Shown piece after piece: positions 5,275 through 5,697 of a stretch of 17,444 bases of DNA. The notes beneath the pieces were generated by a model. It did no database searches, was not told the origin of the DNA, and saw only the letters and a program-made list of their open reading frames with translations. The DNA is from a virus. Position 1 is the first letter of the stretch. Every line of letters begins with the position of its first letter. The stretch lies in the IMG/VR virus record IMGVR_UViG_3300021403_000540; one strand, written 5' to 3'. The position numbers and the translations under genes were made by a program.

Positions 5275-5697
5275 CTATTCTCCCTGTGCTTGTTGCGTGG
5301 TGGTGCGTGGGAAAGTGTCGACGACGCCGTCGATGGTGATGATATTTTCTTTGTACAAGTAAATTAGGCCCGGCCCTTTCTCGAACAGATCGTTCGAGTA
5401 CTTTGCTTTTCCCCCTTCTCTTTTGTTCACAGAGATCGTGATGTGTGGATGCGTGTTATCCGAAGAAACTCCGCGAACTAAAACTGCTTGGACAAGGTCG
5501 TTGTGCCCGACTCCAATGACTTCCAACTTCACTTTCTGGCTGATCGGCGTATTGCCAAGTTCGAGCTCAGATGGAGCGAATTTGATCGTCATGTGGTCGG
5601 CATGGATCTCCTGATGCTTGGGAGGGAAATACGAGAGAAGAAGATTCTTCGAGTCTGGCGTCAGGAAGACGCCGATGTAAACGGCCTTCTCTGCCAT
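5275..5697 (-). CDS. 2H phosphoesterase superfamily protein (LigT / 2',3'-cyclic-nucleotide phosphodiesterase-like; an Acb1-like cyclic-oligonucleotide phosphodiesterase is possible).
   Basis: The 140-aa ORF has two H-x-T-x motifs about 50 residues apart: H35-M-T37-I and H85-I-T87-I-S, each preceded by hydrophobic residues. The size suits a single 2H domain. AAGGA sits 5 nt upstream of the ATG at 5697. The stop is 2 nt from the MVP start. Confidence 0.7.
   Translation of the reverse strand: MAEKAVYIGVFLTPDSKNLLLSYFPPKHQEIHADHMTIKFAPSELELGNTPISQKVKLEVIGVGHNDLVQAVLVRGVSSDNTHPHITISVNKREGGKAKYSNDLFEKGPGLIYLYKENIITIDGVVDTFPRTTTQQAQGE

Follow-up and report, generated by a model that had tools for sequence, protein, structure and literature searches.

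A minimal phage-encoded 2H phosphoesterase, probably an RNA end-healing enzyme of the Trl1-CPD/CNPase type

Introduction

Enzymes of the 2H phosphoesterase superfamily require a ribose 2′-OH or a cyclic phosphate. They include the cyclic phosphodiesterase (CPD) domain of the fungal and plant tRNA ligase Trl1 (PF08302; structure 6u05) and its vertebrate orthologue CNPase (2xmi, 2ydd), which measure about 190–215 residues and carry an N-terminally fused P-loop polynucleotide kinase or kinase-like domain. In contrast, the protein described here is a stand-alone, phage-encoded 2H protein of 140 residues, whose gene lies at positions 5275–5697 of a 17,444-nucleotide stretch of viral DNA (IMG/VR record IMGVR_UViG_3300021403_000540); the whole of this stretch is referred to below as the window, and all coordinates are window positions unless a locus is named. 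With moderate confidence, the window protein is read as an RNA 2′,3′-cyclic phosphodiesterase that heals RNA ends, and as a minimal, stand-alone 2H enzyme of the Trl1-CPD/CNPase type.

The active site of the fungal CPD comprises an HxT/HxT tetrad and five further residues, namely a Gln four residues before the first histidine (His1-4), an Asn four residues before the second (His2-4), Asn782 at His2+15, a Tyr in strand beta-1, and a His or aromatic residue at His1+5 (Banerjee et al., PMC7145591). The beta-1 Tyr and the His1+5 residue of the Trl1 CPD are predicted to stack on the terminal nucleoside, and the essential Arg130 of ThpR has no counterpart in the fungal site (PMC7145591). The LigT/ThpR enzymes (4qak, 5h7f, 1vgj; Pfam 2_5_RNA_ligase2) share the 2H fold, the HxT tetrad and the pair of stacking aromatics, and the chemistry expected of them is that expected of the window protein, the conversion of a 2′,3′-cyclic phosphate RNA end to a 2′-phosphate. 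Acb1, the product of phage T4 gene 57B (gp57B; 7t27, 9q2y), resembles the window protein in being a compact phage-encoded 2H protein (about 150 residues) with an HxT/HxT tetrad and a beta-1 Tyr. The residues by which Acb1 holds cyclic dinucleotides are Y12, the nucleobase-stacking W74 and F107, the adenine-contacting E141, and W147 in the C-terminal lid (Hobbs et al., PMC9117128), and the viral 2H fold has repeatedly been recruited to destroy immune second messengers (PMC11410667).

The enzyme type is a known one, and the use of 2H proteins by jumbo phages for clearing cyclic phosphate ends has already been predicted by comparative genomics (PMC7824862). What is new is the recognition of a very large, unnamed family as a minimal stand-alone Trl1/CNPase CPD module, whose length falls about 35% below that of any characterised member of this type, and the conserved coupling, in one phage lineage, of its gene to that of a major vault protein (MVP) homologue. 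If the prediction holds, the RNA end-healing step in these phages would be unlike the T4 Pnkp paradigm, and an enzyme of 130–140 residues would be smaller than any CNPase-type catalytic core known so far, a useful property for studies of structure and mechanism.

Conserved motifs and predicted fold

The gene is an ATG-started open reading frame (ORF) of 140 codons at 5275–5697, as a preliminary description of this DNA had reported; the strand, which that description did not give, is the minus strand. A Shine-Dalgarno-like sequence of the AAGGA type, AAGGAAAG, can be read 5–12 nt upstream of the ATG (5699–5706, minus strand). The translation contains exactly two H-x-T-x motifs with a spacing of 50 residues between their histidines, again in agreement with the earlier description: HMTI (residues 35–38; 5584–5595, minus strand), with H35 and T37 as predicted general acid and phosphate ligand, and HITI (residues 85–88; 5434–5445, minus strand), with H85 and T87. 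Two or more H-x-[TS]-hydrophobic motifs arise in 1.9% of shuffles of the protein, so that the pair by itself is weak evidence. The pair is taken as real because it is conserved in the family. H35, H85 and T87 occur in every one of 58 aligned stand-alone members and T37 in 57 of them, and the two motifs are carried by neighbouring strands of a 2H fold predicted with high confidence.

The preliminary description had seen nothing beyond these two motifs, and in this respect it has to be revised, as a full set of conserved positions surrounds them. N102 and L20 are also invariant in the 58-member alignment, and Y7, F11, T37, F40, P42, Q70, A71, Y100, S101 and L104 are nearly so. A D-x-F-P-R motif is common near the C-terminus; its F-P-R portion, which is specific to this 2H family, lies at 5305–5313 (minus strand) in the window and is conserved as F or Y in 52, P in 48 and R or K in 51 of the 58 members. 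Along with a GQAV motif and a Val at His1-4, the D-x-F-P-R motif distinguishes the family from Trl1 and CNPase.

An AlphaFold model computed with three sequences reached a pLDDT of 55 and was discarded; when rerun with the 58-sequence alignment, the prediction reached a pLDDT of 91.3 and a pTM of 0.84. The predicted structure is bilobed, with a central concave beta-sheet that bears both HxT strands, and is that of a 2H phosphoesterase, the fold to which the motifs had been assigned in the preliminary description. Comparison with solved structures placed the catalytic domain of mouse CNPase first (score 12.8; 123 of 140 residues, 2.1 A), followed after a clear drop by two structures of Acb1 (7.0 and 6.7; 98–99 residues, about 3.4–3.5 A), a plant Appr>p cyclic phosphodiesterase (6.5), LigT-type enzymes of Deinococcus and Pyrococcus (6.4 and 5.9), ThpR (5.6), and rotavirus VP3 and coronavirus ns2 (5.5). 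The Foldseek ranking agrees, with CNPase, goldfish RICH and, third, 6u05 (Trl1 kinase-CPD of Candida albicans) at its head. The viral structure predictions that match best are multidomain proteins of giant viruses, one of them annotated ‘RNA ligase’, and Acb1 is ranked ninth at best (TM 0.50). Since CNPase stands clear of all other structural matches, the modelled window protein is assigned to the Trl1-CPD/CNPase branch of the 2H superfamily, and to neither the LigT nor the Acb1 branch.

Active-site residues and sequence relationships

Four of the five accessory residues of the Trl1 CPD site are kept in the 2H family. Tyr7 in beta-1 (5677–5679, minus strand; Tyr in 57 of the 58 members) is the first predicted nucleoside-stacking aromatic, a role taken from PMC7145591, and corresponds to Y647 of Trl1, F8 of ThpR, Y12 of Acb1 and a Tyr at the aligned position of CNPase (‘LYFGWFL’). 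Phe40 at His1+5 (5578–5580, minus strand; Phe in 54 members and Tyr in three) is the second, on the same authority (PMC7145591), and is equivalent to H687 of Trl1 and F48 of ThpR. Asn81 at His2-4 (5455–5457, minus strand; Asn in 45 members and Gln in three) corresponds to Asn763 of Trl1, which contacts the phosphate through a bridging water (PMC7145591). The segment Y100-S101-N102 (5392–5400, minus strand) starts the helix after motif 2, and its Asn102, found in all 58 members, matches Trl1 Asn782. The spacing between the second histidine and this Asn is 15 in 51 of the 58 members, as between His767 and Asn782 of Candida Trl1; the window protein has a two-residue insertion, giving a spacing of 17.

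In a single-sequence search the window protein has no PDB sequence match and no NCBIfam match, and the best PDB sequences found with HMMER at a non-significant E of 0.1–0.5 are CNPase and Trl1. The HMMER alignments pair the N-terminal ‘VYIGVFLT..S...L’ with CNPase LYFGWFLTKKSSETL, ‘PHITIS...PVY’ with AHVTLGCAADVQPV, and the Y100-S101-N102 segment with HVTLGCAADVQPV, which comes after the HVTL motif of CNPase. The Pfam family tRNA_lig_CPD matches the window protein at E 4e-4 with 20.4 bits, which is below its gathering threshold, and matches several relatives above it (P0147, 31.8 bits; P0024, 27.9 bits; P0013, 26.7 bits). The same family is found at E<1e-4 in 20 of 54 multidomain relatives, and a precomputed PF08302 match accompanies about half of the 120 relatives listed.

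A LigT-like 2′,3′-cyclic phosphodiesterase used in tRNA repair was the second reading offered by the preliminary description. The activity it named, a 2′,3′-cyclic phosphodiesterase for RNA repair, is the one favoured here; the LigT branch to which it was attached is not, CNPase being the closest structure. An Arg of the ThpR type at His2+5 never occurs in the 58-member alignment and is absent from Trl1 as well, and the window protein has neither this Arg, which is essential in ThpR, nor a match to the LigT Pfam families.

Comparison with Acb1

The headline of the preliminary description was an Acb1-like enzyme directed against CBASS (antiphage signalling based on cyclic oligonucleotides), and this part of it is not borne out. 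Acb1 was represented by the T4 gene 57B product and its homologues, all 68 of which, with the exception of one fragment, carry PF23474. The window protein has no match to this family at E<=1, and PF23474 is not among the families shown for its relatives. BLASTP against T4 Acb1 aligns the stretch ‘PHITIS’ and nothing else. Comparison by hhalign with the single T4 Acb1 sequence gave a probability of 9.8% with the first motif misaligned, and was replaced by a profile-profile comparison with a 14-sequence Acb1 alignment, which gave a probability of 43.8% and paired Y7 with Y12, H35 with H44, T37 with T46, H85 with H113, and T87 with T115 (window protein and Acb1, respectively). An outcome of this kind is to be expected between two branches of a single superfamily.

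Most of the residues with which Acb1 holds its ligands have no counterpart. W74 is replaced by I61 in the window protein (V, I, T or L in the family) and F107 by S79 (S, C or T), neither of them aromatic; the C-terminal lid is lacking, most family tails ending 2–6 residues past the F-P-R without a conserved aromatic; and the helix insertion that precedes motif 2 in Acb1 is absent from the window protein. Of the binding aromatics of Acb1, the window protein has just the equivalent of Y12, namely Y7, a residue found across the 2H branches compared. Membership in the Acb1 family was rejected because PF23474, the stacking Trp and Phe, the helix insertion and the lid are all missing. At none of the family loci examined was there a link to CBASS or its antagonists.

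Size and distribution of the family

A word-index search with the window protein returned just three close relatives. Searching 1.84 billion cluster representatives (50% identity clusters) with an HMMER profile found 2,225 at E<=1e-3, a figure that is a lower bound for the family, and 796 at E<=1e-10. Most members are stand-alone proteins of 122–160 residues, and many others are domains within proteins of 300–1,700 residues. The family is present in jumbo phages, bacteria of the candidate phyla radiation (CPR), giant viruses, and eukaryotic RNA-repair polyproteins. In phage libraries the only match of the window protein is PHROG 36523, listed as ‘unknown function’, and the Agrobacterium jumbo phage Atu_ph07 is the sole cultured phage with a detectable copy, which is annotated there as hypothetical. 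Further loci were located with a hand-built degenerate DNA pattern; three of them (L022, L023 and L025) gave no family match with hmmsearch and were set aside.

Loci L028–L034 place the family in metagenome-assembled genomes of CPR bacteria (Saccharibacteria, Paceibacterota, Taylorbacteria and Yonathbacteria) and of one gammaproteobacterium, where it occurs as stand-alone proteins of 140–170 residues or, in L029, as a 497-residue fusion whose other 330 residues have no match in a PDB sequence search. These copies are either cellular genes or the result of mis-binned phage contigs.

The identical window protein is present in three public assemblies, and the equivalent place in syntenic viral contigs is taken by homologues with 80, 58, 51, 48 and 39% identity. 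An unusually fast evolution of the 2H gene, as a signature of an arms race, was considered and rejected because its identities across syntenic contigs (80, 58 and 48%) resemble those of the neighbouring MVP-like protein (83, 63 and 61%) and metallophosphatase (75, 57 and 55%).

Domain fusions and gene neighbourhoods in the family

Across the family, fusions of the 2H domain involve RNA-repair modules. Pfam scans of 54 multidomain members found HAD_SAK_1, the HAD phosphatase of ‘Swiss Army Knife RNA repair proteins’, in 23; an AAA_33 P-loop kinase and an AKAP7-type 2H domain in 10 each; R3H in nine; MJ1316, the ‘RNA cyclic group end recognition domain’, in eight; the PolyA_pol head of CCA-adding-type nucleotidyltransferases in three; and a 3′-5′ exonuclease, NUDIX and DUF7178 in one each. 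Ten multidomain relatives scanned against PHROG showed no partner domains beyond these. The Swiss Army Knife (SAK) proteins were reportedly introduced by Burroughs and Aravind in 2016, and their content is given here from the Pfam names. SAK polyproteins that combine AKAP7-type 2H, MJ1316, P-loop kinase, HAD_SAK and R3H domains contain the window-family domain (profile E 1e-19 to 1e-23) between the kinase and the HAD phosphatase, as one module of a protein with 1,300–1,700 residues. One such relative, P0068, has the order AKAP7-2H, kinase (610–731), window-family domain (795–921) and HAD (1062–1169), in which the domain directly follows a P-loop kinase, the arrangement seen in Trl1 and CNPase. 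In the window, unlike in these polyproteins, the 2H protein is encoded by a separate gene and its putative partners by neighbouring ones.

Neighbouring genes were surveyed for stand-alone members on long, unrelated, jumbo-phage-like contigs. In L011 the gene for RlaP, an RNA-ligase-associated nucleotidyltransferase, lies directly downstream of the 2H gene, and in L021 a gene for a CCA-adding-type enzyme overlaps the 2H stop codon, mirroring the fusions. An RNA ligase of the T4 Rnl1 type and HAD_SAK_2 are encoded within 4.5 kb of the 2H gene on a 276-kb contig and in L008, and a Ro60-type vWA protein within 6 kb of it in L012. In L007 and L010 the 2H gene is followed by DUF3307/cREC, Metallophos and DSPc genes, with Metallophos 1–2 kb downstream.

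Some relatives, among them P0007, P0009, P0012, P0105 and P0141 (380–575 residues), have 250–450 extra residues that match neither Pfam nor PHROG families, and the genes directly downstream of the 2H gene in L012 (6444–10388 of that locus; 1,314 residues) and L009 (6395–8101; 568 residues) have no precomputed Pfam match. These regions and genes possibly represent uncharacterised partner domains of the CPD. The two large downstream proteins were also tested as hidden MVP homologues, an idea that was rejected, and a PDB sequence search with that of L012 gave no match.

The locus in the window

The 2H gene belongs to a group of four closely spaced genes on the minus strand. Two nucleotides lie between its stop codon (5275–5277) and the ATG (5270–5272) of the downstream gene (2525–5272, minus strand), which encodes a 915-residue MVP homologue with a shoulder/SPFH-like domain and a cap helix (MVP_shoulder, E 2.5e-27). 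This protein matches solved MVPs in the PDB at E 6e-19 over about 320 residues (about 520–843), and its N-terminal 520 residues have no match. Further along are genes for a SpoU-family RNA 2′-O-methyltransferase (1795–2409, minus strand; Pfam SpoU_methylase, E 6.4e-17), which weakly resembles the anticodon-loop enzymes TrmJ and TrmL with NCBIfam matches far below cutoff, and for a calcineurin-like metallophosphoesterase of 203 residues (1175–1786, minus strand; Pfam Metallophos at 21.5 bits, exactly the gathering score), which has no match in a PDB sequence search. On the opposite strand, divergent from the 2H gene and 37 bp away, a gene at 5735–7168 (plus strand) encodes a 477-residue fusion of a LigD-type 3′-phosphoesterase (residues about 28–145) with an ATP-dependent ligase comprising nucleotidyltransferase and OB domains (LigD_N, E 1.6e-10; DNA_ligase_OB_2; DNA_ligase_A_M); LigD_PE_dom of NCBIfam and the LigD phosphoesterase domains in the PDB match it as well. 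The gene call of the source assembly starts internally (398 residues) and drops the phosphoesterase domain. The cultured phages in the collection hold no close relative of this protein, the best tblastn match covering 28% of the query.

The block of ligase, 2H, MVP, SpoU and Metallophos genes recurs in L001, L005 and L006, where the phosphoesterase-ligase is 81–90% identical and the SpoU and metallophosphatase genes are kept, and in part in L004. The pairing of 2H and MVP genes is kept in all four and in the distant L018 (about 40% identity), which lacks the ligase. Of 50,697 phage records, just three contain a homologue of the MVP-like protein (35% identity). They are LR756500, LR756501 and LR756503, ‘uncultured phage’ genomes of 462–735 kb, and none has a 2H neighbour within 8 kb of the MVP gene.

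Proposed function and alternatives

By computation the analysis establishes the gene, its predicted fold and clade, the conserved active site, and the fusions and neighbours of the family, which, together with the gene order in the window, point to RNA repair; the substrate, the position of the phosphate in the product, the partners and the role in infection are inferred. The proposed reaction would begin when a metal-independent ribonuclease, such as a host anticodon nuclease or a toxin, leaves RNA with a 2′,3′-cyclic phosphate. By homology to the Trl1 CPD, CNPase and ThpR, Tyr7 and Phe40 would sandwich the terminal nucleoside of this RNA, and His35/Thr37 and His85/Thr87 would hold the cyclic phosphate for acid-base hydrolysis, with Asn81 and Asn102 assisting through water. 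The expected product is an end with a 3′-OH and a 2′-phosphate, as for CNPase, Trl1 and ThpR. A phosphomonoesterase may then clear the remaining phosphate; candidates in the window are the metallophosphatase (acting on a 2′- or 3′-phosphate) and the LigD-type phosphoesterase domain, and in the fusions the HAD domain. The healed end would become a substrate for a ligase or for a CCA-adding enzyme. Methylation of a 2′-OH by the SpoU protein could in addition block re-cleavage of the RNA. Repair of this kind may help to keep translation running during infection. The CCA-adding enzyme of E. coli has an HD domain with 2′,3′-cyclic phosphodiesterase, 2′-nucleotidase and phosphatase activities, and if these hold, the fusions and operons of 2H and nucleotidyltransferase genes would be a functional analogue.

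Several observations weigh against an RNA end-healing function. The fifth accessory residue of Trl1, the Gln at His1-4, is a Val in the window protein, and the 20.4 bits of its PF08302 match fall short of the gathering threshold of 23. Within 10 kb on the source contig there is no sign of a polynucleotide 5′-kinase, of Tpt1 or of a dedicated RNA ligase, the ligase that adjoins the 2H gene resembles DNA ligases, and at seven further loci the neighbours are mostly genes of replication and nucleotide metabolism (gyrase, ribonucleotide reductase, LigA, tubulin). The members of the family are known from sequence and predicted structure alone, and fold and clade do not fix the substrate because viruses have repeatedly recruited 2H proteins for the cleavage of second messengers.

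The alternative that survives best, though an unlikely one, is that the same chemistry is applied to small molecules, that is, to 2′,3′-cyclic nucleotides or ADP-ribose cyclic phosphate and not to RNA ends. In the infected cell, the enzyme would then clear what RNA cleavage or NAD-dependent RNA processing leaves behind as by-products or signals. CNPase, the top structural match, is named for its activity on 2′,3′-cyclic nucleotides, the window protein itself contains no RNA-binding domain, and it has been suggested that jumbo-phage 2H proteins may remove 2′,3′-cyclic phosphate ‘signals’ besides repairing RNA (Iyer et al. 2021, PMC7824862). The neighbourhood of cREC, Metallophos, DSPc and NAD-synthase genes in L007 and L010 points to NAD or ADP-ribose metabolism.

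A role in DNA-end processing is improbable. The 2H protein would in this case serve as an accessory of the LigD-phosphoesterase-ligase, cleaning ribonucleotide-terminated or phosphate-blocked 3′ ends in phage DNA repair or replication. The divergent pairing with the LigD_N-ligase gene at 37 bp is conserved in the window, L001, L005 and L006, a ligase neighbour is probably present in L004 as well (36 ligase residues are visible), and in L019 an NAD-dependent DNA ligase gene lies 2.5 kb from the family member. However, the link to the ligase is limited to one phage lineage, and L018 keeps the MVP neighbour and lacks the ligase; the 2H and ligase genes are transcribed divergently and not together; the fusion partners found across the family belong to RNA repair; and the requirement of 2H enzymes for a ribose 2′-OH or a cyclic phosphate also argues against such a role. 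Least probable of all is an Acb1-like anti-CBASS enzyme that cleaves the 3′-5′ bonds of cyclic di- or trinucleotide immune signals, whose compact phage-encoded 2H design the window protein shares and whose family signature, ligand-stacking aromatics and lid it lacks.

The most unusual aspect of the locus is the coupling of the 2H gene to the MVP homologue. It is conceivable, as a decidedly speculative extension of the RNA end-healing reading, that the CPD and the MVP-like protein act together, a vault- or SPFH-like shell or scaffold concentrating or sheltering damaged tRNA or rRNA, and the CPD, metallophosphatase, SpoU methylase and phosphoesterase-ligase healing, sealing and immunising it. 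If true, such cooperation would for the first time connect a vault-protein homologue functionally with RNA repair and would offer a tractable prokaryotic handle on vault function.

Further features of the window

The rest of the window is like that of a large phage, with genes for an endolysin, a papain-like protease, Cpn10, a protein with a RyR domain, and a tmRNA; ThyX and Fic genes lie further along the source contig. The tmRNA gene is complete (11925–12259, minus strand; Rfam RF00023, 113.7 bits, E 3e-44), with the tag peptide ANDNSYNVIADQRAAA predicted by ARAGORN. This phage-borne RNA for ribosome rescue falls in an intergenic gap of the gene calls of the source contig, within the same 17-kb stretch as the enzymes for RNA ends and RNA methylation. 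Adjoining it is a gene for a 115-residue single-domain protein (11277–11624, minus strand) with a precomputed Response_reg match (L026, 4074–4421), which might be a divergent phage receiver domain of the cREC-like kind that has been discussed for jumbo phages.

The gene for the papain-family (Peptidase_C1) cysteine protease (8270–9070, minus strand) lies about 3 kb from the 2H gene. A Peptidase_C1 gene is also found about 0.4–2 kb from the 2H gene in L007, L009 and L010 (27–30% identity), loci that are otherwise different. Towards the end of the window, the Cpn10/GroES-like ORF (16193–16564, plus strand) overlaps the listed start of the ORF for the RyR-domain protein (16381–17061, plus strand; domain at residues 164–209), and the true start of the latter gene is probably further downstream.

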